17,398 nt of DNA from the NCBI GenBank assembly GCA_019058245.1, contig JAHPZJ010000014.1, positions 115,185 to 132,582 on the forward strand, given 5' to 3'. Source of the stretch: Promethearchaeota archaeon (lineage in GTDB: Archaea > Asgardarchaeota > Lokiarchaeia > Sigyniarchaeales > SOKP01). A program made the position numbers and the translations under genes. Of the stretch, positions 753 to 17,398 are shown piece after piece (the stretch's first letter is position 1; every line of letters begins with the position of its first letter). The notes under the pieces are model-generated. The model worked only from the letters and a program-made list of their open reading frames with translations, was not told the DNA's origin and did no database searches.

Positions 753-1958
753 ATGGTAGTCTATTTTGCGTTTTTATTTCATATCTATCAACCGCCTGTA
801 CAAATTCCCTCAGTCATCAACCAAATCGTGAATGAATCCTATCGACCAATTATTGACGCAATGATGGAACACCCTGACGCGAAGATTACTTTAAATATTA
901 ACGGAACGTTAACGGAGCAATTACATGATTTTGGATATGATGACTTAATTGGATTGATGACTACCCTTGCCTCACGGGGGCAAATCGAATTTACGGGATC
1001 CGCAAAATTTCATCCTTTGCTTCCCCTTATTCCTGAACCTGAAATTAACCGTCAAATCGAATTAAATAATAAAACGAATCAATATTTTTTTGGGAAATTG
1101 TATAAACCACGGGGGTTTTTTCCCCCAGAAATGGCGGTCTCAGAAGAAGTGTTTAAAACTGTGAAAAAGGCGGGTTTTGACTGGATGATCATGAGTGGAA
1201 TTGCCAATACATTGCCAGAATTTCCCACTGACAATATTTCAATCCACCCAAATGGGTTAAAAGTGCTATTTAGGGATGATTATATATCGATCGATTGTGC
1301 CTTCGATAAAATTAATAATGTAGAAACATTTGCCAATCGATTAAAATATAAGGGAACAAAAGAAAATGTGTATATTATCACCGCAATGGATGGTGAAACC
1401 TTCGGGCACCATGTAAAACACGCTATAAAAAATTTTCTGATACCTCTTTTTCAAGCCTTACCTCACAGAGATGATATAAAATTATGCAATGTCTCAGAAA
1501 TTGTAGATAGATTCCCCAAGGGATTCACTCAGGTTCCAAGGGATTCCAGCTGGTCGACCATGCCCTACGATATTGCCCATGATGTACCCTTTCCCCTCTG
1601 GTTCGACCCCCACAATGAGATCCACCGAGAACAGCATAAATTCTTTATGTATGCCCTCACTCTCATTCACTTATCAGCAAAATACCGGGATAGCATGAAT
1701 GATGAGAAGAAAAGGATATTTGATAACGCCAGAAATTTATTAGATCGTGGTATACATTCCTGTTCTCAATGGTGGGCATCAAAACGCCCCTGGTACAGTC
1801 CTGACATGATTCTCCGTGGGTTAAATGAAGTATTGATGGCGAGTGTCAATGCGAAACGGAGTATTCCTGATAATATCCCTGACATTAAAGATGCGATGGA
1901 GCTTATTATGGGAGATATGCTCAAAGCGCAAAATAAAATTGTACTGTCTTTAATGTAA
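753..1958 (+). CDS. Glycoside hydrolase family 57 protein (alpha-amylase/amylopullulanase-like)
   Basis: GH57 conserved regions: FHIYQP, GSAKFHPLLPLIP, GFFPPEMAVS (nucleophile Glu), AMDGETFGHH (acid/base Asp), SSW, HSCSQWW. Confidence 0.9.
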   Translation: MVVYFAFLFHIYQPPVQIPSVINQIVNESYRPIIDAMMEHPDAKITLNINGTLTEQLHDFGYDDLIGLMTTLASRGQIEFTGSAKFHPLLPLIPEPEINRQIELNNKTNQYFFGKLYKPRGFFPPEMAVSEEVFKTVKKAGFDWMIMSGIANTLPEFPTDNISIHPNGLKVLFRDDYISIDCAFDKINNVETFANRLKYKGTKENVYIITAMDGETFGHHVKHAIKNFLIPLFQALPHRDDIKLCNVSEIVDRFPKGFTQVPRDSSWSTMPYDIAHDVPFPLWFDPHNEIHREQHKFFMYALTLIHLSAKYRDSMNDEKKRIFDNARNLLDRGIHSCSQWWASKRPWYSPDMILRGLNEVLMASVNAKRSIPDNIPDIKDAMELIMGDMLKAQNKIVLSLM

Positions 1959-1980: not shown

Positions 1981-2328
1981 TCAATCATTCCTAGAACGAA
2001 TTGCATAAAACCATTGATTCCAAATATTTAATAATTTCACAAACGTTTCTCTGTAAATTGAATATTCCTTGAATTTACCTTTTTTATAACTATAGATTAA
2101 TTTATGTTGCTCCAAAATTCTAATGTGATGGGAGATGGAAGGCTGACTTCTATTCAACTTATTTTCAATATCAGAAAGTAAACATGGCTTTTTATTTAAA
2201 AGGTTTAAAATTATAAATCTGTCTTCATTCCCTATAATTTCCATACATTGTTGTAGGAATTTATATGCTGTATTATTCTTGAATTTTTTTTTAATGGTCT
2301 TAATTTTATTCTTTGTTAATTCATTCAT
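1981..2328 (-). CDS. ArsR/SmtB-family winged-helix transcriptional regulator
   Basis: GNEDRFIILNLL...LNRSQPSISHHIRILEQHKLI...KKGKFKEYSI fits the ArsR wHTH pattern; 115 aa. Confidence 0.88.
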   Translation of the reverse strand: MNELTKNKIKTIKKKFKNNTAYKFLQQCMEIIGNEDRFIILNLLNKKPCLLSDIENKLNRSQPSISHHIRILEQHKLIYSYKKGKFKEYSIYRETFVKLLNIWNQWFYAIRSRND

Positions 2329-2369
2329 GTTTTTCTTCTTATTCTTTCTTTTATAATATTTTTAAAAAG

Positions 2370-3194
2370 TTATGATGAGAGTTTTTTAATCCAATTCTCC
2401 CATAAATACACAAATTCCATTATTTTTGACATATTTAATGAGTAATAAATATATTTTCCATCTTTCCACCCTTTAATCAATCCGGTTCTCTCTAATTTCT
2501 TAATATGATGTGAAGAAGTAGATTGAGATTTCCCAATAGACATCTGTATCTCATCCAATTTTAATGGTTGAGATTTTAATAGTTCTAATATTAAAAATCT
2601 TTCAGGATTAGAGAAAGATTTCAACCAATCAATTAAATTGATTTTTGAATCGAAAACTTCAATCTCAAGCATAGGATCTATTTCTTCATTTTGATTTTCA
2701 AGATAAGTTGCGTTTTCTAAGTTACTAATAACCTGGGACGATAAAATAGCTTTATCTGGTTGAATTAGCTGTTTAATCTGTTCAAATTTCTCATTACCTT
2801 TCTTAAGTTTATTTTTCACTTGATGATTATACATCGCAAGTTCTATCGTAGGTAGAAGGTCATCTTCACTTGTGATAGGTTTTACTATGTATCCATAGGG
2901 TTCTGATAATTTCGCTCTATCTAAAGTTTTTTTATCTCCATATGCAGTGATAAATATTATAGGGATGTTATAGTCTCTGTTAATAATTTTCGCTGTTTCA
3001 ATTCCATCCATCGTACCAGCTAGAATTATATCCATCAATATTAAATCTAGATTTAAAATCTCTATTTTAGAAAGTGCTTCTTCTCCTGAAGGAACAATGG
3101 CAATTGGATTATAATTTAATTTTTTTAGAAGAACTGCTATCGCCTCAGCGGTTATTAATTCATCTTCAACAATCATAACGTTTAATTGCGCCAT
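2370..3194 (-). CDS. Response regulator, N-terminal receiver domain plus C-terminal ArsR-type HTH
   Basis: REC residues intact: IVEDE, LILMD55, FIT83AY, IVK105P. C-terminal SNPERFLILELL...SQSTSSHHIKKLERTGLI...KDGKYIYYSL is an ArsR wHTH. Confidence 0.9.
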   Translation of the reverse strand: MAQLNVMIVEDELITAEAIAVLLKKLNYNPIAIVPSGEEALSKIEILNLDLILMDIILAGTMDGIETAKIINRDYNIPIIFITAYGDKKTLDRAKLSEPYGYIVKPITSEDDLLPTIELAMYNHQVKNKLKKGNEKFEQIKQLIQPDKAILSSQVISNLENATYLENQNEEIDPMLEIEVFDSKINLIDWLKSFSNPERFLILELLKSQPLKLDEIQMSIGKSQSTSSHHIKKLERTGLIKGWKDGKYIYYSLNMSKIMEFVYLWENWIKKLSS

Positions 3195-3223
3195 TCTACT
3201 ATATCATAAAATAGTTTTTAAAA

Positions 3224-5134
3224 TTACCAGGTAATTACTACATGAGTCCCATTATTTTTTTTAATAGAAATCTTCCCATCCATTTGTTTGGTTATAGTGG
3301 ATATAAGTTTCAAACCTAATGTATCTGATGTTTTAAAATCTACATCATTGGGAAAACCAATTCCGTTATCATATACCTCTAATAATATTCTATTGTTTAT
3401 GGTTTTCTTTAGGGTTACATCAATTTTTCCATTATAATTTTTAGGAAATGCATGTTTTAATGAGTTAGATACAAGTTCATTTATAATTAAACCACAAGAC
3501 ATAGCTTTGTCTAGACTAAGATCAACATTTTCAATATTCAACTCTAGTTTAATCTGCTTGGAATTTGCTAAATAAGCTTTAAATAGATTATTGACAAGGT
3601 TTTTTATATAATTAGAAAGATGAATATTATTCAAGTTTTCAGAGTTATATAATGTTTGATGTATTAACGCCATAACTTTAATACGATTTTGGAAATCCTT
3701 AAAAATATGAAGAATTCTATCATCTTTAACATATTGTTCTTGTAGTAATATTAAGCTTGAAATTATTTGCAAATTATTTTTTACTCTATGATGAATTTCT
3801 TTTAGAAGTATTTCTTTTTCCGCTAGCGAGGATTCTAAGAGAAATTCATTCTTTTTCTGCTCAGATATATCAATTATATTTATATGTAAAGCGGTAGTAC
3901 CTTGAAATTGAATCGTTTTAAAATATTGCCGTATATATAAATAACTCTCATCTTTCTTCTTCATTCGTATTTCGGATTGAAATGAGGATATTTCATTTTT
4001 TATAATTTTATTATAATTTTCAATAGTCATTTGTAAATCTTCAGGATGAATATGTTGGGTTATTTTGTTTAAATTCCAGGATAATAATTTATTTATTGAA
4101 AATCCTAAAATGTTAGATATACCCCTATTTGCAAATACTATCCGTCCATTAGCAATTATAAGTGTGCCTAATAAGGATTGTTCTGTAAGCATTCGATATT
4201 TTTCTTCACTTTTTCTTAACTCTTTTTCAGCAGAATCACGAACAATAACACTTGCAAGAACATTGGCTATAGATTGTAAAAAATTAATATCGTCTTTTGA
4301 AAATATTCGATGTTTACTTGTATGAGCTCCTAATATCCCAAAAGGACTGTTTTTTCCTTGTATAATTACACTCATTCCACTAATAACATCATGATCAGCA
4401 AGAAGTTTAGGGGCGAAGAATCTGGTTTCAGTTTTTAAATTTTCTACAATTACTGGAGTAGTTGTTAATAATGTAAAACCTGCTTGTGAATTCTTATTAT
4501 TTTCAACAGTTGCTTTTCCAACCAACCCCTCATGCCAACCAACTCCTGCTCGTAACTTCAAAAATTTCTTATCAGGAAGAATTTCAAGTACCTTTGTAAA
4601 CTCAACATCCAATATTTTTGCAAGCAATAATGTTGCTCGTTTAAATGAATTATCAATATTTTTCTCTGTAATAGTTTCCAAGCCAAATTGCGCAATCAAA
4701 GCTTGTCTATGGATATGGTTTTCAATAAATTGCTCAGTTTTTCTGGATTTCGTTAAATCTTCGGAAACACAGAGTATTCCGATAATTTTGTGTTCTTTAT
4801 TTGAAATTGGTGCTTGATTTGATGAAAGTTGAATATAGATTCCATTCTTTTTTTTAAAACGATATTCAATATCTTTTACCACTCTTCCCTCCATTACTTC
4901 TTTAATTCCTTTAGCAAAAATCACTTGATCATCAGGATGAATTAATTCAAAAACTTCTAATGAATTAAGGATTTCTTCTTTATTATATCCTAAAATTTCA
5001 ATAAATGAATTATTAACTTCAATAAAATTCAAGTTTATATCTAATTTATAAACCATACACTTTGAAATATTAAGCAGTGTCTGAAATATCTCTTCTGGTA
5101 AACATTGAGAACAATTAACATCCTTTTTGTTCAT
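3224..5134 (-). CDS. Cytoplasmic sensor histidine kinase, PAS-GAF-PAS-HisKA_2-HATPase
   Basis: Two PAS domains (LIHPDD, HIHPED, PAC-like RFKKKNG / RMKKKD), a GAF domain (LRAGVGW...SQAGFTL...FLQSIANVLA), HisKA_2 H-box LKEIHHRVKNNLQ, N-box NELVSNSLKHAF, G-boxes DNGIG and LGLKLI. No TM segment. Confidence 0.93.
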   Translation of the reverse strand: MNKKDVNCSQCLPEEIFQTLLNISKCMVYKLDINLNFIEVNNSFIEILGYNKEEILNSLEVFELIHPDDQVIFAKGIKEVMEGRVVKDIEYRFKKKNGIYIQLSSNQAPISNKEHKIIGILCVSEDLTKSRKTEQFIENHIHRQALIAQFGLETITEKNIDNSFKRATLLLAKILDVEFTKVLEILPDKKFLKLRAGVGWHEGLVGKATVENNKNSQAGFTLLTTTPVIVENLKTETRFFAPKLLADHDVISGMSVIIQGKNSPFGILGAHTSKHRIFSKDDINFLQSIANVLASVIVRDSAEKELRKSEEKYRMLTEQSLLGTLIIANGRIVFANRGISNILGFSINKLLSWNLNKITQHIHPEDLQMTIENYNKIIKNEISSFQSEIRMKKKDESYLYIRQYFKTIQFQGTTALHINIIDISEQKKNEFLLESSLAEKEILLKEIHHRVKNNLQIISSLILLQEQYVKDDRILHIFKDFQNRIKVMALIHQTLYNSENLNNIHLSNYIKNLVNNLFKAYLANSKQIKLELNIENVDLSLDKAMSCGLIINELVSNSLKHAFPKNYNGKIDVTLKKTINNRILLEVYDNGIGFPNDVDFKTSDTLGLKLISTITKQMDGKISIKKNNGTHVVITW

Positions 5135-5471: not shown

Positions 5472-5957
5472 ATGGTAAAACTAACAAGTGAAATGAAAGA
5501 TGGTTTAAGAGTCCCCGGAAAAGGGGGCAGCTTGGTGTATTTGGCAACATCATCCGTCGATGGTAAACCAAATATTGCTGCTATGCGTTACGTGGATTCT
5601 TATAAAGATGATAAGATCTTAATTTCAGATATGTTTTTGTTGAAAACTAAAACAAACCTTAAAGAGAATCCCGAATGCATTATAGCAATATGCCATCCCA
5701 TGGATTCTGGAAGAGATTGGGTTTTTAAAGGAAAAGCTATTGATATTGAATATGGGTTTCCTCCAGATTTTGATTGGTATGGGATCAAAGCTAAAGAAAT
5801 TTTAGATGGTTGGGGTGATTGGCATCATAAAGAACCTCCAGATGAAGTTCCTCCTGATGTAGTATACTCTAAACCAGCTCAGCGTGGAGTTGTAGTATTA
5901 CATGTAGAAAAAATTTATTCAATAGAAAAAAGTAAAGTAGGAGAAAAAATACAATAG
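5472..5957 (+). CDS. Pyridoxamine 5'-phosphate oxidase-like (split-barrel, FMN-binding) protein
   Basis: YLATSSVDGKPN...ISDMFLLKTKTNLKENP...VFKGKA pattern; SD-like aggaga at 5460-5465. Confidence 0.8.
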   Translation: MVKLTSEMKDGLRVPGKGGSLVYLATSSVDGKPNIAAMRYVDSYKDDKILISDMFLLKTKTNLKENPECIIAICHPMDSGRDWVFKGKAIDIEYGFPPDFDWYGIKAKEILDGWGDWHHKEPPDEVPPDVVYSKPAQRGVVVLHVEKIYSIEKSKVGEKIQ

Positions 5958-5969
5958 GAGGAGAAAAAA

Positions 5970-6386
5970 ATGGTATTAAAACTAACTGAAAGAATGAAAG
6001 CTTGGATTAAAACTGGTTGTCATTTAAATGTGGCAACAAAAAATGGAATCCCTTTCCTCACTGTATCAAGAAACGTAAAATCTGTTTCGGACGATGAAAT
6101 TGTCTTTGCTTTATCTCAAGATGAATATTTTGTAATTAAGTCTGCTTTTTCCGAAAATCCGTGGGTTGCTATTGGAGTGTCTAAAGCAGGAGGTATCCGG
6201 GCATGTTATCAATTCAAAGGTAAAGGAACAGTTGATAAAGAAGGAGGTATTTATAACTTAAAAGTAAATCTCTCAGAAGTTTACTGTACTAAACCAGGTT
6301 GCTATGCTGGACAAAGACTTGATACTAAACCCGCTCAAGAATGTGAAGAATGGGAACATGGTCTTTGGACCGATTTACCAAAATAA
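5970..6386 (+). CDS. Second PNPOx-like split-barrel protein (paralogue of the upstream gene)
   Basis: LNVATKNGIP...ENPWVAI...YQFKGKG...EVYCTKPGCYAGQRL; strong SD aggaggag immediately upstream. Confidence 0.75.
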   Translation: MVLKLTERMKAWIKTGCHLNVATKNGIPFLTVSRNVKSVSDDEIVFALSQDEYFVIKSAFSENPWVAIGVSKAGGIRACYQFKGKGTVDKEGGIYNLKVNLSEVYCTKPGCYAGQRLDTKPAQECEEWEHGLWTDLPK

Positions 6387-6476
6387 AATATTTTTTTTTG
6401 AATTTCAAATGTAATAAAATTTGAATTTTATTGGATTAGAGAATTTGCAGTAAATATTGGATGTATGGTGAAATAA

Positions 6477-6785
6477 TTGGTAGTTGAAAAAGATATTGAA
6501 GAGAAAATTATTGGTAAGAAGAAACCAAAGAAGCTTCCTAAAAAAATGCCTTGGTTTATGCCTTTCATGTGTGATGGATGTGGTGATTGTGTTAAAGTTT
6601 GCCCTCAAGGTGGAATCAAATTATTAGGTCTTGAAAGAAAAGTTCCATCTGCATGGCTAATATATCCTGATTACTGCATTGGATGTGCGAAATGTGCAGA
6701 AGCTTGTCAAAGTTCAGCGGTTCAAATGACATCATATGTAGAAAAAGCTATTGAAAGATATAAGACTAAAAAACCCTTCCAATAA
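6477..6785 (+). CDS. 2[4Fe-4S] ferredoxin-like protein (TTG start)
   Basis: CDGCGDCVKVCP and CIGCAKCAEAC motifs; ggtga SD-like element upstream of the TTG. Confidence 0.88.
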   Translation: MVVEKDIEEKIIGKKKPKKLPKKMPWFMPFMCDGCGDCVKVCPQGGIKLLGLERKVPSAWLIYPDYCIGCAKCAEACQSSAVQMTSYVEKAIERYKTKKPFQ

Positions 6786-6832
6786 AGTTTAAAAAAAAAT
6801 GAATTAAAACTAAAAAAAAGAGGAAATTTGAA

Positions 6833-7903
6833 ATGGTTATTTTTGATCTAAGAAGATGTGATTTTTCAAAATGCAAAGGTGAATGTTTAGCAAATTGTCT
6901 TTTTGTCGATTATGACGAGAAAAAGGCAAAAGAAGACATTGCTAAATTAATTCGCCAAGAACCTGCAGATATACTAGCAAAATGTGTTACCTGTTATGCC
7001 TGTAATGAGTTTTGTCCAACTGGGGCAAACCCTTGGGAGTTAATTAATGCTATGCAGCAAAAAACTGGACTATATTTGTACCCTGACAAAGCTAAAAAAA
7101 CAGCAAGAGGATGGGCAACAAAAGAGGACCGTATTATTAAAGGTGACCCAGATAAACCGGCAATTTCTTTAGGAGGTTTTATGGATGTACTTCCTTGGGA
7201 TAAAGTCTTTAGAGGAAAATTATTTGAAGATTTGACTATGATTATGGGAGGATCATATTGTTGCAGAATGGGAGCAACTCATATGGGAGAAAGAGACCCT
7301 CCGTTTAAATATCTTCCTACCTTAGTAAAAAATTTAGCTGAAACAGGTCAGAAAGAAATAATTTTTTACCATGATGCATGTTATAGCCTATTAACTTCTG
7401 AAGCTTTAGCTCAAATGATTGAAGTCCCTTTTAAGCCTGTACATTATATTGAATATATAAGAAATTGGCTTCGGGAACATACGGATGAGTTAACTCCCTT
7501 AAATATTAAAGTGGCTTATCAACGTCCCTGTACTTCTAGATATAATCCACATGGTGATATGGATGAAACTGTATATGATTGGATCGAAGAGATCTTTGAA
7601 TTACTTGGTGTAGAACTCGTAAAACGTAAATATGAAAAAGAAAATTCAATGTGTTGCAGTTCAGGAATATTTCCAACTCAAAGGGAAAGAGCAATGGATT
7701 ATGTTCATATGAATTTGCAAGATGCTAAAGATGCTGGAGCAGAAGCTTATATTTTCTTCTGTCCTATTTGTGCTGCTGTGATGAGACAACCCTCCAAAAA
7801 AGAATTTGGAATGGAACCATATCATGTGATAATGCTAGTACAAAAAGCTTTAGGAGAAGATTTGCCAGTAGGTGGAGCAGCTATAGGGATACCAGCCCAT
7901 TAA
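6833..7903 (+). CDS. Fe-S oxidoreductase with an N-terminal 4Fe-4S dicluster and two CCG-like domains (HdrD/GlpC-like)
   Basis: CDFSKCKGECLANC and CVTCYACNEFCP; cysteine-rich domains YCCRMG...HDACY and YQRPC...MCCSSG...CPIC. Confidence 0.82.
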   Translation: MVIFDLRRCDFSKCKGECLANCLFVDYDEKKAKEDIAKLIRQEPADILAKCVTCYACNEFCPTGANPWELINAMQQKTGLYLYPDKAKKTARGWATKEDRIIKGDPDKPAISLGGFMDVLPWDKVFRGKLFEDLTMIMGGSYCCRMGATHMGERDPPFKYLPTLVKNLAETGQKEIIFYHDACYSLLTSEALAQMIEVPFKPVHYIEYIRNWLREHTDELTPLNIKVAYQRPCTSRYNPHGDMDETVYDWIEEIFELLGVELVKRKYEKENSMCCSSGIFPTQRERAMDYVHMNLQDAKDAGAEAYIFFCPICAAVMRQPSKKEFGMEPYHVIMLVQKALGEDLPVGGAAIGIPAH

Positions 7904-7942
7904 ATTCTTTATTTTTTTCTTTAAATTAATAGGTGTTTAATT

Positions 7943-8692
7943 TTGAGAATTTTGATTAGTATCCGTTCCTTTGAAGAGTTGAAATCTGCTATTGATGGAG
8001 GAGCTGATATAATAGATTTAAAAAATCCCGATGAAGGATCACTAGGGGCACCATTTCCATGGTTAATTAAAAAAATTAGAAATTATAGCAATGATTTTAC
8101 TTTAAGTGTTGCTATTGGTGATATGCCCAATTTACCTGGAACTGCCTCTCTCGCTTCTTCTGGAGCAGCTTTATGTGGTGCAGATATAATTAAATTAGGG
8201 CTTTATGGACCTCGTAATTTTAAAGAAGCTGTAAAATTATTAAAAAGTGTACGGAAAGCAATAAAAGACATAAATCAGAATATTATTGTTGTAGGTGCCG
8301 GTTATGCAGATTTTACTTCTTTTAATGGTATAGATTCCTTAGATATCCCAACGATATGCAATCAAGCTGGAGCAGATATTGCTATGTTAGATACATATTC
8401 GAAAAATGGTCAAAAATTATTTGACTTTATAAATTCTGATAAATTACGAATTTTTATTGATAAAACTCATCAGAGTGGCTTATTAGCAGCTCTAGCTGGA
8501 TCACTCGGATTAAATGATATAATAAAAGTCAATGAATTAGGAGCAGATATTATTGGCTTTAGAGGTGCTGCTTGCAGTGAGTCTGATAGGAAGAATGGAG
8601 TAGTTGAACTTAATAGAGTAAGAAAAATTGTAAGGATATCACAGAATCAAAATACTTATAAGAGAGTTATAAGTTCTACTTCAATAAAATAA
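7943..8692 (+). CDS. mfnB: (5-formylfuran-3-yl)methyl phosphate synthase (4-HFC-P synthase, methanofuran biosynthesis; TTG start)
   Basis: Signature GGADIIDLKNPDEGSLGAPFPW (Schiff-base Lys27), SVAIGDMP..PGTASLA, IKLGLYG, MLDT..K.G, LAGSL, DIIGFRGAAC; TIM-barrel length (249 aa). Confidence 0.9.
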   Translation: MRILISIRSFEELKSAIDGGADIIDLKNPDEGSLGAPFPWLIKKIRNYSNDFTLSVAIGDMPNLPGTASLASSGAALCGADIIKLGLYGPRNFKEAVKLLKSVRKAIKDINQNIIVVGAGYADFTSFNGIDSLDIPTICNQAGADIAMLDTYSKNGQKLFDFINSDKLRIFIDKTHQSGLLAALAGSLGLNDIIKVNELGADIIGFRGAACSESDRKNGVVELNRVRKIVRISQNQNTYKRVISSTSIK

Positions 8693-8760
8693 AATTATTT
8701 TAAAAAAATAAGTTACTATATAAAAAGTTAATAAATTTAGAAAGTATCGGTTGTAAAAGT

Positions 8761-9015
8761 ATGAGTACTATTAAAATTAAACATTCTCCTGAAAAATGTT
8801 ATGCTTGTAAAACATGTGAATTAATATGTTCTTATCATCATACAAAAACGTTTCAACCATCAGTTTCAAGTATTTCTGTTGAGAGAGACCATATTAATGG
8901 GAATTGGTATTGGATATTAAAGGATAATTGTGATAAATGTCAGGGTGAAGAACAACCTTTATGTGTAAAATTTTGTTTTTATGATGCTATTACTGTTGAG
9001 GAGGGTGAAGATTAA
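8761..9015 (+). CDS. Small 4Fe-4S ferredoxin-like partner of the AOR
   Basis: CYACKTCELICS and CDKC...PLCVKFC; its stop lies 1 nt before the AOR start. Confidence 0.85.
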   Translation: MSTIKIKHSPEKCYACKTCELICSYHHTKTFQPSVSSISVERDHINGNWYWILKDNCDKCQGEEQPLCVKFCFYDAITVEEGED

Positions 9016-9016
9016 G

Positions 9017-10936
9017 GTGAGTAGATATGATATAAAGGGTAGTATTACTGGAAAAATACTTAGAGTAAATTTAAGTGATGAAAAAGTAAGAGTAGAAGAT
9101 AATATATATGCAGAGAGATGGATTGGAGGGAGAGCATTAAGTAGTTGGATTCTTCTAAATGAATTGGTTCCTAATTTAAAGTGGTCTGATCCAGATAACT
9201 ATCTTATTTTTGGTGCGGGTGCTCTTGTGGGAACGATTCTCCCAGCAGCATGCCGAATGAATATTGATACTCTAAATGTTTTTAATAATGGTAAAGGATC
9301 ATCGAATCTTGGTGGTCATTTTAGTCCTGAAATGAAATTTTCCGGTTTTGATCAGATAATTATCAGTGGGAAATCAGATAACCCCATTTATCTCTTAGTA
9401 AAGGATGGAAATGCAGAAATCCGTGATGCTACTCATTTATGGGGAAAAAATACATATGAGACAGAACAAATCCTTAAAACTGAATTAAACGATAATAAAA
9501 TCGAGATTGCCTCAATAGGACCAGCAGGAGAAAATTTAGTTCGTGGATCTGCAATCATAGCGGATTGTGGTCGGACAGCTGGAGGATCTGGTGTAGGTTG
9601 TGTTATGGGTGATAAAAAAATAAAAGCTATTGTAATTCGCGGTAGTAAGGAGATTAAAGTTGCTCACCCTGAGAAATTTATTGAAAGAGTATATGAGGCA
9701 TATCAAAAAATTATAAATCGTCCTACAGCTAAGCTGTTTAGAAGAAAAACACTTGGAGGATTAGTATATAATGATTCTGAGCAATTTGATGCATTGTGGG
9801 AGATGATGCACACCGTTAGAAATGCACAAGATGTGCATTGGTCTCGTGATAAAAGATCCAAGATAATGGGAAAGAATGGTGTAGGAAGATTTTTCAAAAA
9901 ACTTCAGGCGTGTTATGTTTGTCCAGTAGGATGTCAACCATATTCAGAAATTAATGAAGGAAAATATAAAGGAACTAAAGGACTTGGATATTGGATAAAT
10001 TCTGTTATGTGGTCAGGTAAAATGGATGTTGCTGATCCTGATGCCTCATTAAAATATCATATTCGTGCCAACCAGTTAGGTTTAGATGGAGATAATTCTT
10101 CTGTTGCGATGGCATGGGCGTTTGAGGCATATGAGAAAGGATTACTAACTAAAGAGGATACCGATGGTTTAGAATTAGTATGGGGAAATATTGATGCTAT
10201 GTTAGAATTACAAGAAAAGATCGCGTATCGCGACGGATTTGGAGAATATCTCGCAAACGGTGTTGTTGAAGCATCAAAAAAACTTGGAAAAGATTCTGAA
10301 AGGTTTGCTACTCACCAAAAATATCAAGATACTCTTGATCCTTATAGAATTGCTAAAGGTTGGTCTCTAGCATGTGCAACATCACCAGTAGCGGGACGTC
10401 ATATGAGAGGTAGTGTTAATTTACCTATTGTTTTTGGTCCTAAAGGAGTTAAATTCAATCCATATTCATATGAAGATCAACCCCCCATAGTATTCTGGGA
10501 ATTACGTTCAAAAGAAATAGAGGATATAATTGGTATTTGCGTCTATGTTGGAACTTGGTCTGGCGTCTATGCTCTTGAACCCTCTGATTATGTTGATTTA
10601 ACCAATTTAGCACTTGGAACTAATTTGAATGAAGAGGAATTCATGTTACTTGGACAGAAATCATATAATCTAGAAAAAGCTTTTAATACATTACATGTAG
10701 GGTTCACACGGAAGGACGATTTACCACATCGAAGATTTTTTGAAGATCCAATCCAATCTGGACCCCATAAAGGCGAGAAATTAGATATAAATAAATATAA
10801 TTCGATGTTGGATAAGTTTTATGAGCTTCATGGTTGGGACTTAAAAACTGGATGGCAAACTCGTGAAACGTTAGAAAAATTAGGATTGAAAGATATAGCT
10901 GAAAAATTAGCTAAAGCGGGACGATTAATTGAATAA
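9017..10936 (+). CDS. Tungsten/molybdenum aldehyde:ferredoxin oxidoreductase family protein (start revised to GTG 9017; 639 aa)
   Basis: GKILRVNLS, SSNLGGHFSPEMKFSGFD, SIGPAGENLV, G.G.VMG.K..KAI, CYVCPVGC, NQLGLD, DIIGIC, YELHGWD..TG. GTG 9017 follows SD-like gagggtga (9001-9008) and avoids overlap with the ferredoxin gene. Confidence 0.92.
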   Translation: MSRYDIKGSITGKILRVNLSDEKVRVEDNIYAERWIGGRALSSWILLNELVPNLKWSDPDNYLIFGAGALVGTILPAACRMNIDTLNVFNNGKGSSNLGGHFSPEMKFSGFDQIIISGKSDNPIYLLVKDGNAEIRDATHLWGKNTYETEQILKTELNDNKIEIASIGPAGENLVRGSAIIADCGRTAGGSGVGCVMGDKKIKAIVIRGSKEIKVAHPEKFIERVYEAYQKIINRPTAKLFRRKTLGGLVYNDSEQFDALWEMMHTVRNAQDVHWSRDKRSKIMGKNGVGRFFKKLQACYVCPVGCQPYSEINEGKYKGTKGLGYWINSVMWSGKMDVADPDASLKYHIRANQLGLDGDNSSVAMAWAFEAYEKGLLTKEDTDGLELVWGNIDAMLELQEKIAYRDGFGEYLANGVVEASKKLGKDSERFATHQKYQDTLDPYRIAKGWSLACATSPVAGRHMRGSVNLPIVFGPKGVKFNPYSYEDQPPIVFWELRSKEIEDIIGICVYVGTWSGVYALEPSDYVDLTNLALGTNLNEEEFMLLGQKSYNLEKAFNTLHVGFTRKDDLPHRRFFEDPIQSGPHKGEKLDINKYNSMLDKFYELHGWDLKTGWQTRETLEKLGLKDIAEKLAKAGRLIE

Positions 10937-10972: not shown

Positions 10973-12667
10973 TTAGTTAGATGTCTTTATAACTTCTATT
11001 TTTAAAACTAATTTGAAAGTACTACCTTTCCCAGGTGTGCTTTTTACTGTTATATCCCCACCGAGTAGATTTGCTAACTTCTTAGAAAGATGAAGTCCTA
11101 AACCACTTCCCTCTTTATACTTCCCAGGTTCAAGAATTCGACTAAATGGTTTGAATAATTTATTTAAATCTTCTTTTTGTATTCCAGAACCAGTATCTTT
11201 AACTGAAATTACAAGCTGTTCTTTTTTTCCTTTAATTTTTATGGAAATCCTTCCACTGTCAGTGAATTTTATTGCATTTCCAATTAGATTTATTAGAATT
11301 TGATTTACCCTTTGCTTATCATTGTAAATTATAAGGTTTTCGGGAGCATCAATAAAAAGGTCAAGACCTTTTTTCTTCGCAGCAACGCTAAAGGTTTCTT
11401 TCAAATGTATTAACTCATCTACGAGATTAAAGTTATCTTTTCTTATGGGTAATTTACTTATTTCTATTTTAGTCATATCAATTACATCAGTTATTAAATC
11501 ATCTAAATAAGTTGCACTGTTGAGAATAATATTAAGTTGGTTTTCTTGTTCTTCATTTATCCTTCCAGTTCTTCCCTTCAATATTGTTCTAGTAAAACCT
11601 ATTATAGAGGTTAATGGAGTTTTTAACTCATGAGTTATACTTGCTAAAAAGCTAACTTGTTGTGGTCTCGTAAACATTGCTAAAAAATCGGCTTTATAGG
11701 CTTCATCCTCTTTTAATTTTTCTTCACTTACTGAGAGTATTTCAGAACGTATGTTTTTTATTATGAGATTCAGTAATATGGAAAAATATATGATTGATCC
11801 TATATATGCTCCAATAAAATATCCCCACATGTGTTTACCCCACAAATCTTTTTCAAATAGCTTTATTATATCTACTAATGTTATAGCTATGAGTAAGGTA
11901 ATAGTTAAAATAGCAAATAAGACCCAATAGGTTAAAGGACGAAAAACCATTTTAGGATTAATAATTACTGGAATTATAATGATACAACAACCTCCAATTA
12001 AAAAAAGTGGTCCCATGAATAAGGGGTAGGTATTGAGGGTTTTATGAACTCTCTCAGTTAGAATTAATGAAATCATGAATAAGATAAATCCAAAGAAAAG
12101 GAATGACGAAACAGCTTTAAACTCAAAACGAGACCATTTGGTATAACGAAATAATACAAACGGAACTAAAATTACTAATGATAGGATTAAAGGAAAATTA
12201 AATACAATTCTTGCCCATTTATAATCGAAAGGAAAACTTACTATTATTAGTATAATTATAATCATGAATATAATTGTAAGAATATATTTCGTGCGCTTTA
12301 CGATTATATCAAAAGCTAAAACAAAGAACATTCCTCCAATTCCAAGTGAGATGTAACTTAATCTGCCAAGAAATTCATAGTTATCTGAAACGAGATCATA
12401 ATCTCCGCAAAATGTTAATAAATAGTTACTAGAATTTCCTAGAGCTGGAGGGACTTGAAGAATTTGAAAAAAAGTGAAGAATAGGCTAAAAGCAAAGCCA
12501 AGGAGTAAACTTGCTAGTCCTAACATAATGATTCTTTCATTAAAGATTACTCTTTTTCTAGCTATATGTATAAAATATATACCACAAATTATTGCTATTG
12601 CTATAGCAATTCCCCATAAAAATCGTTCATAGGGATCCCAAATCATTACTCCATTATCGCATTCCAT
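10973..12667 (-). CDS. Polytopic membrane sensor histidine kinase (about 9 TM helices + HisKA + HATPase)
   Basis: About nine hydrophobic segments in residues ~16-303; H-box FLASITHELKTPLTSIIG, N-box QILINLIGNAIKFT, G1 DTGSGI, F-box LFKPF, G2 GSGLGL. Confidence 0.92.
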   Translation of the reverse strand: MECDNGVMIWDPYERFLWGIAIAIAIICGIYFIHIARKRVIFNERIIMLGLASLLLGFAFSLFFTFFQILQVPPALGNSSNYLLTFCGDYDLVSDNYEFLGRLSYISLGIGGMFFVLAFDIIVKRTKYILTIIFMIIIILIIVSFPFDYKWARIVFNFPLILSLVILVPFVLFRYTKWSRFEFKAVSSFLFFGFILFMISLILTERVHKTLNTYPLFMGPLFLIGGCCIIIIPVIINPKMVFRPLTYWVLFAILTITLLIAITLVDIIKLFEKDLWGKHMWGYFIGAYIGSIIYFSILLNLIIKNIRSEILSVSEEKLKEDEAYKADFLAMFTRPQQVSFLASITHELKTPLTSIIGFTRTILKGRTGRINEEQENQLNIILNSATYLDDLITDVIDMTKIEISKLPIRKDNFNLVDELIHLKETFSVAAKKKGLDLFIDAPENLIIYNDKQRVNQILINLIGNAIKFTDSGRISIKIKGKKEQLVISVKDTGSGIQKEDLNKLFKPFSRILEPGKYKEGSGLGLHLSKKLANLLGGDITVKSTPGKGSTFKLVLKIEVIKTSN

Positions 12668-12759: not shown

Positions 12760-12788
12760 TTAATTACTTTATTGTCAAATATTTAAAT
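12760..12788 (+). promoter_or_regulatory. 29-nt element, copy 1 (contains a TATA-like TTTAAAT), upstream of the response regulator
   Basis: ttaattactttattgtcaaatatttaaat; 27/29 identical to 13708-13736; the TATA-like core ends about 30 nt before ATG 12818. Confidence 0.65.
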
Positions 12789-12817: not shown

Positions 12818-13711
12818 ATGAAACCCTTGATACTTGTGGTTGAGGATGATCCAAATATCTTAAAATATCTGAAAATAACTTTAGAATTTAATGAATGTAA
12901 AGTAATTACAGCCGAAAACGGAAAAATTAGTTTAAAAGTTCTTTCAGAGCTAAAAGAATCTCTTGATCTTATTATTAGTGATATTATGATGCCTGAGATG
13001 AATGGATACGACTTTTTTGATGCTGTTTCTAATGACTCCACCTATTATCAGGTTCCATTTATCTTTCTTTCCGCTCTGGATTCTCCAGAAGATATTCGAT
13101 TTGGAAAGATGCTTGGCGTGGATGACTATATCACTAAACCTATTGATGAAGAAGACTTTCTAGCAACCATTTTTGGTAAAATTAAACGTGGCAAAACAAT
13201 TAGCTTGATTAATGAAAAAATAAATGAGATTTATTCTTCCTATGGGATCTCAGATGTATTAGTTCCTAAGGAAAGGGAAGATTTAATTTTATTAATTGAA
13301 GTAAACTGGGATGATGTAGTAGGTCCAAAGTTAATAAAATATTATCCTAAAGATATTGAATTAGATGTATCGCTTAATAATATTAGTGATCAACTTTATG
13401 ATGGTGTTAAAGCAATGTATGGTCAAGATGCCATTTTAACTGGAGAAGGAATCTTAATTAATTTAAAAAACTTAAATGTTAGTGCATATGTCTTTTTTGA
13501 TTCATATGTTGATAAATCTTATAGAGGAGGAAGAAAAGATTACATGTTTTCGCTAATTGCATCCACTATAACATATTTTCAATCTCTAAAAATTAAACAA
13601 GTTTTTATAGAACTATCGTCTTTATATAAAAAACAGGAAAAATGGGATATAGAAAAGTTTTGGAACAAATTTTATGAGATCCTTTCAAAACCATCACTAA
13701 TATCTAGTTAA
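12818..13711 (+). CDS. Response regulator: receiver domain fused to a longin/uDENN-like C-terminal domain
   Basis: REC: VVEDD, IISD55IMMP, FLS85A, ITK107P. C-terminal domain IEVNWDDVVGPKLIKYYP...AYVFFDSYVDKSYRGGRKDYMFSLI resembles uDENN/longin signatures. The REC call is firm; the longin call is pattern-based. Confidence 0.85.
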   Translation: MKPLILVVEDDPNILKYLKITLEFNECKVITAENGKISLKVLSELKESLDLIISDIMMPEMNGYDFFDAVSNDSTYYQVPFIFLSALDSPEDIRFGKMLGVDDYITKPIDEEDFLATIFGKIKRGKTISLINEKINEIYSSYGISDVLVPKEREDLILLIEVNWDDVVGPKLIKYYPKDIELDVSLNNISDQLYDGVKAMYGQDAILTGEGILINLKNLNVSAYVFFDSYVDKSYRGGRKDYMFSLIASTITYFQSLKIKQVFIELSSLYKKQEKWDIEKFWNKFYEILSKPSLISS

Positions 13712-13736
13712 TTACTTTTCTGTCAAATATTTAAAT
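13708..13736 (+). promoter_or_regulatory. 29-nt element, copy 2, overlapping the regulator stop codon and upstream of the GTPase
   Basis: ttaattacttttctgtcaaatatttaaat; 27/29 identical to 12760-12788. Confidence 0.65.
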
Positions 13737-13814: not shown

Positions 13815-14366
13815 ATGATTAATAAAGAAAATGAAGAACAACCAATAAAACTTGTAATCATTGGAATGGAAAATGCTGGAAAAACCACGATATTGGACGT
13901 ACTCACGGGAAAAATTAATCAAGAAACTAATAAACCACCCAGTATGAATCCTACCAAAGGTGTTGATAGAAGTGTTGTGTTATTTTTTGAGAAAGAAACT
14001 AAGGTTTGGGATTTTGGTGGACAAGAATCTTTTCGCAATGAATATACGTCAAATCCAAAGAAATATTTTTACTCAATCTCGTTTTTTTATTATGTCGTAG
14101 ATATTCAGGATTATTACCGACTTATACAATCTGTAATGTACTTTAAAGGAATTTTTAATTTAATTAGAAAATACAGCCCAGAAGCAAAAATCATTTTCCT
14201 TTTTCATAAAATGGACCCTGATTATGATCCAGATGAGAGAAATCTAAAAGGAAAATTCTTAGAAAAGGTTGAGTTAGATTTAAAGTTAGAAAATATACCT
14301 TATACAATGTATGACACTACGATTTTTGATATTAAAACTATTAAAACTGCTTTTGGTCAAGAATAG
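13815..14366 (+). CDS. Small GTPase, Rag/Gtr-like (Arf-related) G domain
   Basis: G1 GMENAGKT, G2 PT47KG, G3 WDFGGQ70, G4 HKMD (His-type, as in Rag GTPases), G5-like TTIFD; 183 aa with no C-terminal roadblock domain. Confidence 0.9.
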   Translation: MINKENEEQPIKLVIIGMENAGKTTILDVLTGKINQETNKPPSMNPTKGVDRSVVLFFEKETKVWDFGGQESFRNEYTSNPKKYFYSISFFYYVVDIQDYYRLIQSVMYFKGIFNLIRKYSPEAKIIFLFHKMDPDYDPDERNLKGKFLEKVELDLKLENIPYTMYDTTIFDIKTIKTAFGQE

Positions 14367-14534: not shown

Positions 14535-14639
14535 GCACAATGCAGCATTCCTGAAAATAACCCTGATCTTAAAGATGCCATGGAGCTTATTATGGGAGAT
14601 ATGTTAAAAGCACAAAATAAAATCATTTTATCTCTTTAA
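14535..14639 (+). pseudogene. Orphan copy of the GH57 gene 3' end
   Basis: Translates AQCSIPENNPDLKDAMELIMGDMLKAQNKIILSL* vs GH57 AKRSIPDNIPDIKDAMELIMGDMLKAQNKIVLSLM*. 14544-14636 vs 1860-1952 is 77/93 nt identical by hand count. An in-frame stop lies upstream at 14511-14513. Confidence 0.9.
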
Positions 14640-15108
14640 CGTGAAAATCAAAAAAGAAGAAATAATTTTTGAAAAACCTAGGACGAAATTATGAGAACTT
14701 TTAAAAACGATTGAAGATAAAGATGAAAATCATTCCGTATTTAAACTAAAATTTGATAAACTTTACGGATATAGAATTATTCACGATAAAATATGATATT
14801 CAATAACGCACTTAAAAAATATCGATTTAAAAAATGCCAAATTTTTGTTAGTCTCTTATAATTCTTTTATTAACTAATTAAAAGAAAAAGCTATTCAATT
14901 AAAAATCAATCTTAAAGAAACTTAGAGATTTTAAAAAAAGGTTTTTATTAATCATCTCATTTTTTAAATAATTTATGTTAGGTGCTTCAAATATATGAAA
15001 TTTTTTTCTCTTCAATAATAGGAGAATTATAATGTCATAATTAAAAAATATTATATATTAAAATACTTTTCTTTGCATAATATTAATTTACAATTTTGGC
15101 GAAATTAA

Positions 15109-17398
15109 ATGACAAAATTCATAAAAAGAAATTTAATAACTTTTTTTCTTGTGACCGTTCTTTTTGGAATAACTCTGATGAATTCTTTTTTCATCTTTAG
15201 AGCTGAAAATTTACCAAATCGAAATGAATACAGAGAGCAAATTAAAGTTTTACCTAAAAGTAGTGCACAGTCGATATCACCCACATTACTTGGCAAGTTT
15301 AGTGATATTTCTGATGAATCTCAAGATGTATATATTTCCGGTAATATTGCATATGTAGCTGATGGGAGTGATGGACTAAAAATTATTAATGTAAGTGATC
15401 CTGCCCATCCCGTATTGCTGGGCAGGTTTGGCGATTCTTACAATAACTCTTTGGGTATATATGTTTCTGGTAATGTCGCATATATAGCTGATTGGACTGA
15501 TGGACTGGAAATTATTGATGTAAGCGATCCTACTAATCCTACATTGCTGGGTAAGTACGGCGATTATTGCAATTATTCTAGCAGTGTATATGTTTCTGGT
15601 AATATTGCATATGTAGCTGATGGGATGGATGGACTGGAAATGATTGATATAAGCGATCCTGCTCACCCTGCATCGCTGGGCAAATATATAACTACTAATG
15701 ATTCTTTGGATGTATATATTTCCGGAACTATTGCATATGTAGCTATTTGGTTTTACGGGCTGGAAATTATTGATGTAAGTGACCCTATTCACCCCGCATT
15801 ACTGGGTAGTTATCACGATTCTTTGGATAATTCTAGTGGTGTATATATTTCCGATAATATTGCATATGTAGCTGATAGGGAGGATGGACTGGAAATAATT
15901 GATGTGAGTGACTCCGCTCACCCCACCTTGCTAAGTAAATATGGCGATTCTTACAATAATTCTCAGCACGTATATGTTTTTGGCAATGTAGCATATGTAG
16001 CTGATGGGGCTGATGGATTGGAAATTATTGATGTGAGCGATCCTGCTCACCCCGCATCACTGGGTAGTTATCACGATTCTTTGGATAGTTCTAATGGTGT
16101 AATTATTTCCGGTAATACTGTATATGTAACTGATGGGACTGATGGACTGGAAATTATTGATATCGGTTTAGTAAGTGGGCAATGGTTAACGCCATCATTA
16201 TTAGGTAAATATGGAGATTATGACAATTTATCTTACGATGTCTATGTTTTTGGTAATGTTGCATATGTAGCTGATGGGTGGAATGGACTGGAAATTATTA
16301 ATGTAAGTGACCCTTCTCATCCTGTGTTGTTGGGCAGGTATGGTGATTCTACCAATAACTCTTACAGTGTATATGTTTCCGATAATATTGCATATGTAGC
16401 TGATAAGGAGGATGGACTGGAAATTATTGATGTAAGCGATCCTATTCAACCAGCGTCGTTGGGCAAGTTTGGCGATTCTTACAATAATTCTGGAGATCTA
16501 TATGTTTCCGGTAATATTGCATATGTAGCTGATGGGAATGATGGACTGGAAATTATTGATGTGAGTGACCCCACTAACCCTACATTAGTGGGTAAGTATG
16601 GTGATTCTTCCAATAATTCTGTAGATGTATATATTTCCGGTACTATTGCATATGTAGCTGATGTGTGGGATGGACTGGAAATTATTGATGTAAGTGACCC
16701 TATTCACCCCACATTGCTGGGTAGGTATGGCGATTCTTACAATAATTCTGACAGTGTATATATTTCCGGTACTATCGCATATGTAGCTGGTGGGATTGAT
16801 GGATTGGAAATTATTGATGTAAGCGATCCTGCTAATCCCGCGTTGTTGGGCAGGTATGGCGATTATTGCAATCAATCTTATGACGTATATGTTTCCGGTA
16901 CTATCGCATATGTAGCTGATTGGATTGATGGATTGGAAATTATTGATGTAAGCGATCCTATTCACCCAGCGTCGTTGGGCAAGTTTGGCGATTCTTCCAA
17001 TTTTTCTTGCGGCGTATATGTTTCCGGTAATATCGCCTATGTAGCTGATCAGATTAATGGACTGGAAATAATTGATCCTGGGGTAGATAACGATGATGAT
17101 GATCTAACAAATGTTCAAGAGATGTATTTTTATTTTACAAATCTAAATAATCCAGACACGGATTATGATAATATGCCTGATGGTTGGGAACTATCTAATA
17201 GTTTAAATCCTCTTGTAGATGATGCGATGGATGATCCTGATTTTGATGAACTAAAAAATCTTTATGAATATTTAAGTGGGACAAAACCTCAAATTAATGA
17301 TACTGAATCTGATAATATGCCTGACGGTTGGGAAGTCTTTCATGGATTAGATCCATTATCAGATGATACCAATAGTGATCATGATAAAGATGGACTTT
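15109..17398 (+). CDS. Secreted/surface protein with 14 LVIVD repeats (two 7-bladed beta-propellers) followed by Asp-rich Ca-binding TSP3-like repeats; 3' end outside the window
   Basis: ATG 15109; MTKFIKRNLITFFLVTVLFGITLMNSFFIF (signal/TM); open to the window end. Repeats S-x-x-VYVSGNIAYVADxxDGLEIIDVSDPxxPxLLG, then DNDDDDLTN..E, DTDYDNMPDGWE, DPDFDELKN..E, DTESDNMPDGWE, DHDKDGL. Missing from the ORF track. Confidence 0.93.
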   Translation, partial: MTKFIKRNLITFFLVTVLFGITLMNSFFIFRAENLPNRNEYREQIKVLPKSSAQSISPTLLGKFSDISDESQDVYISGNIAYVADGSDGLKIINVSDPAHPVLLGRFGDSYNNSLGIYVSGNVAYIADWTDGLEIIDVSDPTNPTLLGKYGDYCNYSSSVYVSGNIAYVADGMDGLEMIDISDPAHPASLGKYITTNDSLDVYISGTIAYVAIWFYGLEIIDVSDPIHPALLGSYHDSLDNSSGVYISDNIAYVADREDGLEIIDVSDSAHPTLLSKYGDSYNNSQHVYVFGNVAYVADGADGLEIIDVSDPAHPASLGSYHDSLDSSNGVIISGNTVYVTDGTDGLEIIDIGLVSGQWLTPSLLGKYGDYDNLSYDVYVFGNVAYVADGWNGLEIINVSDPSHPVLLGRYGDSTNNSYSVYVSDNIAYVADKEDGLEIIDVSDPIQPASLGKFGDSYNNSGDLYVSGNIAYVADGNDGLEIIDVSDPTNPTLVGKYGDSSNNSVDVYISGTIAYVADVWDGLEIIDVSDPIHPTLLGRYGDSYNNSDSVYISGTIAYVAGGIDGLEIIDVSDPANPALLGRYGDYCNQSYDVYVSGTIAYVADWIDGLEIIDVSDPIHPASLGKFGDSSNFSCGVYVSGNIAYVADQINGLEIIDPGVDNDDDDLTNVQEMYFYFTNLNNPDTDYDNMPDGWELSNSLNPLVDDAMDDPDFDELKNLYEYLSGTKPQINDTESDNMPDGWEVFHGLDPLSDDTNSDHDKDGL
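15280..17076 (+). repeat. Tandem coding repeat array, ~129-nt (43-aa) unit, 14 copies
   Basis: The (g/a)tagct codons of the (V/I)A motif recur at 15355, 15484, 15613, 15739, 15868 and onward (129-nt period, one 126-nt unit). Confidence 0.92.

Follow-up and report, generated by a model that had tools for sequence, protein, structure and literature searches.

A receiver-longin protein with a candidate arginine finger, encoded beside a Rag-like GTPase in a Promethearchaeota archaeon

Results

A receiver domain joined to a GAP-type longin domain

Sequence motifs, modelled structures and gene neighbourhood suggest that a receiver-longin fusion protein of a Promethearchaeota archaeon (P0001) is a phosphorylation-controlled GTPase-activating protein (GAP), probably homodimeric, for the Rag-like GTPase encoded beside it (P0002); we hold this reading to be likely. 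The genes lie in a 17,398-nucleotide stretch of DNA, the whole of which was analysed and is called the window here (Table 1).

Table 1. Features of the window, with positions counted from its first nucleotide
Feature	Position	Strand	Evidence and remarks
GH57 gene	753-1958		
Second two-component set	1981-5134	-	PAS-GAF-PAS HisKA_2 kinase, receiver-ArsR HTH fusion, small ArsR protein
Metabolic run	5472-10936	+	PNPOx-like proteins, ferredoxins, Fe-S oxidoreductase-like, 4-HFC-P synthase (Pfam), aldehyde:ferredoxin oxidoreductase-like (by eye)
Membrane histidine kinase	10973-12667	-	Hydrophobic N-terminal region; PF00512 (HisKA) E 2.6e-15; PF02518 (HATPase_c) E 4.3e-28
29-nt direct repeat, copy 1	12760-12788	+	Upstream of receiver gene
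Response regulator-longin fusion P0001, 297 aa	12818-13711	+	Full-length model pLDDT 86, pTM 0.82
Receiver domain of P0001, residues 5-118	12830-13171	+	PF00072 E 7.7e-23, 81 bits
Receiver residues E9-D10-D11, phospho-acceptor D55, S85, K107	12980-12982 (D55)		
Receiver helix 5, about 30 residues (111-141), then flexible linker	13148-13240	+	DSSP on model
GAP-type longin domain of P0001, residues 157-290	13286-13687	+	Fold searches
W164-D165 ... G169-P170, beta1-beta2 loop of longin	13307-13327	+	
R236, candidate arginine finger, beta4-beta5 loop	13523-13525	+	Codon AGA; D232-x3-R236-G237
29-nt direct repeat, copy 2 (93%)	13708-13736	+	At receiver stop codon, upstream of GTPase
Rag-like small GTPase P0002, 183 aa, G domain only	13815-14366	+	PF04670 E 8e-19; Arf E 4e-16
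P0002 motifs: G1, T47, catalytic Gln Q70, HKxD G4	13863-13886 (G1); 14022-14024 (Q70)		
Open-ended ORF, at least 763 aa	15110-17398	+	Hydrophobic N-terminus, many repeats of about 45 aa, LVIVD-like (by eye), then acidic repeats

The receiver of P0001 is intact, with acidic pocket, phospho-Asp, Ser/Thr and Lys all present, and D55 is kept in 61 of the 74 close homologues of the protein. In the model, the extended helix 5 that follows is likely to be a signal-transmitting or dimerising element. Outside the receiver no Pfam match was found, and the longin-containing part, compared alone or as a family profile with the PDB and Pfam, gave nothing significant; bridging profiles were required to reach human proteins from it. 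P0001 ends at residue 297, straight after the longin. Lacking a DENN module, it falls outside FLCN and SMCR8 proper.

A preliminary description of this DNA had proposed a Folliculin/SMCR8-like motif with a putative arginine finger at 13286-13561, which corresponds to residues 157-248 of P0001. Both peptides that it quoted are present in the ORF, starting at residues 163 and 223; they lie 60 residues apart, start to start, where the description had about 55. Its codon for R236 (13523-13525) does read AGA. With up to 4 mismatches allowed, the genome holds no further copy of the 29-nt direct repeat that brackets the gene, which is possibly a shared promoter or operator; the twin arrangement recurs at two other loci (L001 and L075).

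The longin fold

An exhaustive homologue search yielded 156 representative proteins, and a model of the longin was built from a 130-row alignment. The model (pLDDT 91) has the five-stranded longin topology, in which G169-P170 opens beta2 and R236 sits between beta4 and beta5. Its best Foldseek matches are FLCN-FNIP2, GATOR1, Lst4 and a lokiarchaeal longin. Z scores (VIA) are 14.0 for the lokiarchaeal roadblock-longin protein 8yqg (rmsd 2.6, 130 residues aligned), 13.0 for Lst4, 11.8 for FLCN in the active GAP complex 8dhb (rmsd 3.1, 133 aligned), 11.6 for C9orf72, 10.6 for SMCR8, and 10.1 for both a GATOR1 chain and DENND1; the longins of DENND1, TRAPP and Mon1 lie at 8-10. An atlas search gave TM 0.78 to clusters of SMCR8 and FLCN and TM 0.73 to a cluster with 39% Avl9.

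Longins that are not GAPs are nearly equal in score (Lst4 at Z 13, DENND1 at Z 10), and the modelled fold by itself places the domain among longins of the uDENN/GAP neighbourhood rather than proving a GAP. The GP motif is reported to be specific to GAP longins, with adaptin, TRAPP and DENND longins lacking it (PMC12290439). The analysis supports classing the domain with the longins of FLCN, SMCR8, C9orf72 and NPRL2. The longin fold itself was obtained without use of the motif.

R236 in register with known arginine fingers

Register was taken from profile alignments. Compared by hhalign with an alignment of Asgard proteins matching the Folliculin Pfam model PF11704 (A2), the P0001 family profile gave a probability of 98.2 (E 4e-14), with R236 on the nearly invariant Arg of D-x3-R-G. 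A2 in turn reaches human FLCN (E 0.003), the Arg column falling on R164 (counted from residue 143), and a joint profile reaches C9orf72 (E 7.6e-4) and SMCR8 (E 0.027). In the joint-profile register, the Arg column lies on SMCR8 R147 and on an Asn in C9orf72; GP lies on SMCR8 G68-P69, and W164-D165...G169-P170 on C9orf72 W33-D34...G38-P39. These matches to human proteins are weak and, since the bridging profiles are enriched by selection (PF11704 matches, Arg-bearing members), partly circular. On their own, the alignments fix the register of R236 and do not prove homology; the fold is the independent part.

Structures show FLCN R164 and SMCR8 R147 to be fingers, and activity requires C9orf72 W33/D34 as a substrate grip (PMC9473554, PMC8213707). 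Positional homology of R236 to these two arginines is supported by the aligned sequences, and R236 is a good candidate arginine finger. Because the N-terminal WD...GP matches C9orf72, one P0001 chain would, in this register, unite the two half-sites that a eukaryotic heterodimeric GAP spreads over its subunits, a C9orf72-type WD and an SMCR8-type Arg.

P0001 itself does not match PF11704, and 4 of 130 family members match it weakly (best E 0.0018). Taken alone, D-x3-R-G is weak by the standard of chance, since 88 of the genome's 2398 ORFs contain it (3.7%), and the combined pattern GP ... D-x3-R is found in only 4 of the 2398: P0001, its paralogue on C5 and two ORFs that look longin-like by eye. 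The FLCN/SMCR8-type assignment made in the preliminary description is borne out, both by the fold and by the profile register of R236 on R164/R147; catalysis by R236 and its control by the receiver are the predicted part of that interpretation. Among the sequences that it cited, the FLCN and SMCR8 loops, the SMCR8 GP segment and the R164/R147 numbering agree with PDB sequences and papers, the comparison of the FLCN N-terminal GP segment covering F10, L13 and H14. The C9orf72-like WD character of the N-terminal motif had been absent from it.

Conservation and distribution

Conservation in homologues had been suggested as a check on R236, and it was found: all 74 close homologues have the residue, as do 84 of 116 distant ones (representatives clustered at 50% identity), 28% of the latter lacking it. 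Among the longin residues of these 116 representatives, W164 (93%), G169 (92%) and P170 (92%) are highly conserved and R236 ranks 19th. Absence of the Arg accompanies decay of both other motifs: GP is intact in 80 of 82 Arg-bearing domains as against 23 of 31 Arg-less ones, and WD in 70 of 82 as against 14 of 31. In a FastTree phylogeny of 166 domains, which is poorly resolved and contains no eukaryotic sequences, Arg losses are scattered and no order of events is supported.

The longin family occurs in 51 of the 201 Asgard genomes searched, mostly of two families, and named homologues of P0001 are mostly from Promethearchaeota. Fusion to a receiver is found mainly in two Asgard families and is therefore not necessarily ancestral to eukaryotes. 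Separately, proteins of about 1140 residues (G000:C8:122800-126225; P0185, P0198) weakly match the longin family, P0185 and P0198 with eight matched stretches.

A kinase and a GTPase accompany the receiver-longin gene

The membrane histidine kinase gene, whose His346 lies near position 11632, is divergent from the receiver gene, and its product is a candidate for the cognate sensor of the P0001 receiver. P0002 begins 103 nt past the receiver-longin gene. Its best PDB matches are a Loki Rag-like GTPase (8zla/9m28, E 3e-28), the GTP-binding protein 8yl2 and then RagA; a C-terminal roadblock domain is absent from P0002 and from the family of neighbouring GTPases. P0002 keeps Q70 and has no Arg immediately before switch-I T47. 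We regard it as a candidate substrate of P0001.

A similar neighbourhood is found elsewhere. Of 39 distinct Arg-bearing loci, picked by domain match rather than by neighbourhood, 35 have a small GTPase no more than 3.1 kb away and 32 include a kinase, in several gene orders. These counts overstate independence, the loci being kin, and Fisher tests on them, which inflate significance for that reason, are given no weight. The background in the P0001 genome is a GTPase within 3 kb of 273 of 1921 ORFs (14%) and of 4 of 20 other receivers. At 31 loci the neighbouring GTPase is Rag/Arf-like; at 4 others it is Rab-like, and because of these four the substrate class is not fixed. The P0001 genome holds two such modules (on C14 and C5), each keeping its own GTPase clade, and the identities of longin and GTPase co-vary (rho 0.63).

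In four proteins, a GTPase is fused directly to a P0001-type longin in place of the receiver (P0035 and P0038, both Rab-like, P0077 and P0124). Lokiarchaeal proteins of about 470-500 residues (G000:C13:296786-298261; L091-L106) also join a longin with GP and Arg to a Rag-like GTPase domain, and these are possible built-in GAPs. At two loci, in two genomes, genes for KaiB and a KaiC-like ATPase lie near a GTPase/receiver-longin module (L109:1036-2787 and L117:1-1714).

Loci with Arg-less copies

A simple rule of 'no Arg, no GTPase neighbour' does not hold cleanly across the Arg-less loci, in a survey where five cases lay on contigs too short to judge. The Arg-less copies of two clades, L070/L071/L113 and L072-L074/C16, and the one at L116 have no GTPase neighbour. 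Arg-less copies lie beside a GTPase at L068, L107, L109, L115 and L117, and at L118 a distance of 5.7 kb separates the Arg-less copy from the GTPase, which adjoins an Arg-bearing one. In this small sample, 5 of the 6 loci that combine an Arg-less copy with a GTPase hold an intact Arg-bearing paralogue; the paralogue at L117 is frameshifted, with a doubtful Arg. The two-gene loci L068, L107, L109, L115 and L118 are candidate heterodimeric GAPs, and by analogy the pairing of Arg-bearing and Arg-less copies recalls the catalytic and non-catalytic pairs of eukaryotes.

A predicted longin-GTPase complex

The complex of two longin copies with the GTPase, GTP and Mg was predicted in three runs, alongside three controls. 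The 2:1 complex scored 0.81 and the best control 0.00; 58 of 80 solved pairs and 2 of 110 mismatched ones attain the mark for this score, counts that apply only roughly here. At least 96% of contacts are shared between the runs, and partner pLDDT is at least 88. In the model, the two longins cup the GTPase, and the WD..GP loop of copy 1 lies on switch II (Q70). G169 of this copy contacts Q70 with an expected error of 0.9 A, and its R236 contacts switch-I P46 (1.3 A) and P-loop N20 (1.5 A). Copy 2 contacts the N-terminal strand and the interswitch, so that both copies touch the GTPase; the score does not cover the longin-longin dimer.

The arrangement resembles that of FLCN-RagC, where a single chain reaches RagC with its 10-16 loop and R164 (PMC9473554). 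Because such complexes are already solved, the pass may stem from likeness to the FLCN-RagC and C9orf72-SMCR8-ARF1 structures. The model thus supports the plausibility of the complex, not binding or catalysis.

The rest of the window

Past the GTPase gene lies a copy of about 100 nt (14545-14640) that is roughly 80% identical to the 3' end of the GH57 gene (1860-1958), stop codon included. The two copies bracket a block from 2 to 14.5 kb and could be an insertion or duplication scar. The open-ended ORF at the right end likely encodes a surface protein, and minus-strand ORFs at 15376 and 16585 are shadows of it. An ArsR gene, like that of the second two-component set, is likewise found next to the GTPase in the C5 module and at L107, L109, L115 and L117.

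Discussion

The protein type to which P0001 belongs is published: Asgard longins with GP and Arg, and fusions of longins to two-component domains, are both already known. Novak Vanclova, Jackson and Dacks (2025, PMC12290439) described Asgard longins of FLCN/SMCR8 type that share with P0001 the longin fold, the GP and the Arg in the same arrangement, and proposed GAP activity for them. In its accessible text, that paper leaves the partner GTPase as a question, highlights Heimdallarchaeia, and makes no mention of a receiver fusion, a kinase/GTPase neighbourhood or an archaeal WD motif. The idea in the preliminary description that the longin-GAP arginine predates eukaryotes had therefore appeared in that source for Asgard longins; its substance agrees with published work and its novelty was overstated. 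Liu et al. (10.1101/2020.10.19.343400, Fig. 5c) reported that many Asgard NPRL2-like longins are fused to two-component domains, and proposed that prokaryotic signalling is linked to eukaryote-type regulators. P0001, in which one Asgard chain holds a GAP-class longin and a two-component domain, belongs to that class, and the exact receiver-longin architecture is likely drawn in their Fig. 5c; the sections of their preprint consulted differ in giving no catalytic residue, GTPase partner or mechanism. Our literature search, which covered few subscription journals, returned no paper on the GTPase partner, a receiver-specific residue mapping, WD plus Arg in one chain or an assay, and none for 8yqg or LokiRagM. 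The literature covered contains no demonstration of GAP activity for an Asgard longin.

The known eukaryotic longin GAPs are C9orf72-SMCR8, which acts on ARF, FLCN-FNIP2 (RagC/D) and NPRL2-NPRL3 of GATOR1 (RagA/B). P0001 shares with them the longin fold, the aligned Arg, GP and WD positions and a Rag/Arf-like GTPase; it differs in having an N-terminal receiver in place of the DENN module and accessory subunits, and in placing WD and Arg on a single chain, which the eukaryotic GAPs split over two subunits. P0002 is a bare G domain, whereas the Rags carry a roadblock domain. The monomeric DENN GAPs Avl9 and DENND6A, whose activity was shown on Arf-family GTPases, likewise have their Arg finger between longin beta4 and beta5 (10.64898/2026.01.05.697756). 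They hold the substrate by the cDENN subdomain, however, and the absence of cDENN from P0001 argues for a longin dimer. The dimeric longin of 8yqg, the best structural match, is fused to a roadblock domain and has 10% identity to P0001.

How might such a protein work? The membrane kinase would phosphorylate D55. This could alter receiver dimerisation and, via the long helix 5, the assembly or exposure of a longin pair, after which R236 and Q70 would stabilise the transition state of hydrolysis in the GTPase. With the WD grip and the catalytic Arg in one chain, a homodimer could replace the eukaryotic heterodimer. The direction of control, on by dimerisation, is a guess. The full version of this scheme, a symmetric homodimeric GAP in which each chain gives a C9orf72-type WD grip and an SMCR8/FLCN-type arginine and which is switched by kinase-driven receiver dimerisation, we put forward only tentatively, as a possibility that may well prove wrong.

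The longin might instead bind the GTPase without catalysis, as an effector, a sequestering factor or an exchange factor, with R236 serving binding or loop structure. Longin dimers mostly serve as GEFs or platforms (PMC10933270), the longins of DENND1, TRAPP and Mon1 come close to P0001 in fold, and synteny and the predicted interface indicate partnership rather than catalysis. Against this stand the reported specificity of GP for GAP longins, the alignment of R236 with two demonstrated fingers and its modelled place at the P-loop and switch I, and a GTPase with Q70 retained and without an Arg immediately ahead of T47; we judge a purely binding role unlikely, though deserving of some weight. 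P0001 could also be one subunit of a GAP that needs a different longin partner, or could act on another of the roughly 70 small GTPases of the genome. All three eukaryotic longin GAPs are heterodimeric, Arg-less and Arg-bearing receiver-longins occur together at L068, L107, L109, L115 and L118, the P0001 genome has an Arg-less paralogue on C16, and the class of the neighbouring GTPase varies. Yet no second longin gene was seen beside P0001 and most loci are single-copy, WD and Arg stand on the same chain, and the covariation of longin and GTPase and the paralogous modules, each with its own GTPase, speak for the adjacent partner, so that a different partner or substrate seems to us fairly improbable.

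Signal flow might also run in reverse, the nucleotide state of the GTPase controlling localisation or phosphorylation of the receiver, with the longin as input domain. Gene order does not give the direction, P0001 has no other output domain, and a receiver can serve as a phosphate sink or kinase modulator. An N-terminal receiver, long helix and C-terminal domain is nevertheless the usual layout from input to output, and reverse flow has no need for a conserved Arg at the finger position; we think this scheme quite improbable. That the motif match arose by chance in a domain unrelated to FLCN/SMCR8 might be argued from the frequency of D-x3-R-G alone and from the failure of the longin domain to give a direct phmmer or Pfam match. 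The fold, two spaced motifs, profile matches and GTPase context nevertheless concur, and the fold searches largely refute this explanation, to which we attach hardly any credence.

A phosphorylation-controlled GAP acting on the adjacent Rag-like GTPase is thus the reading that we favour. According to Tran et al. (PMC10933270), pairing Asgard GTPases with their GAPs or GEFs is hard from genome layout. The fixed module offers a candidate for each role, as kinase, regulator, catalytic residue or substrate, and the regulator and the GTPase are small and soluble, which makes the proposal directly testable. If GAP activity were found, the chemistry of FLCN, GATOR1 and C9orf72-SMCR8 would work in archaea, and a prokaryotic phosphorelay would drive a eukaryote-type GTPase switch. 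A GAP assay would also test a homodimer-to-heterodimer origin of the FLCN, GATOR1 and C9orf72-SMCR8 complexes. Should the homodimer reading be true, P0001 would serve as a present-day model for the stage that preceded the division of eukaryotic longin GAPs into catalytic and non-catalytic subunits, and the two-gene loci would be independent repeats of that split.
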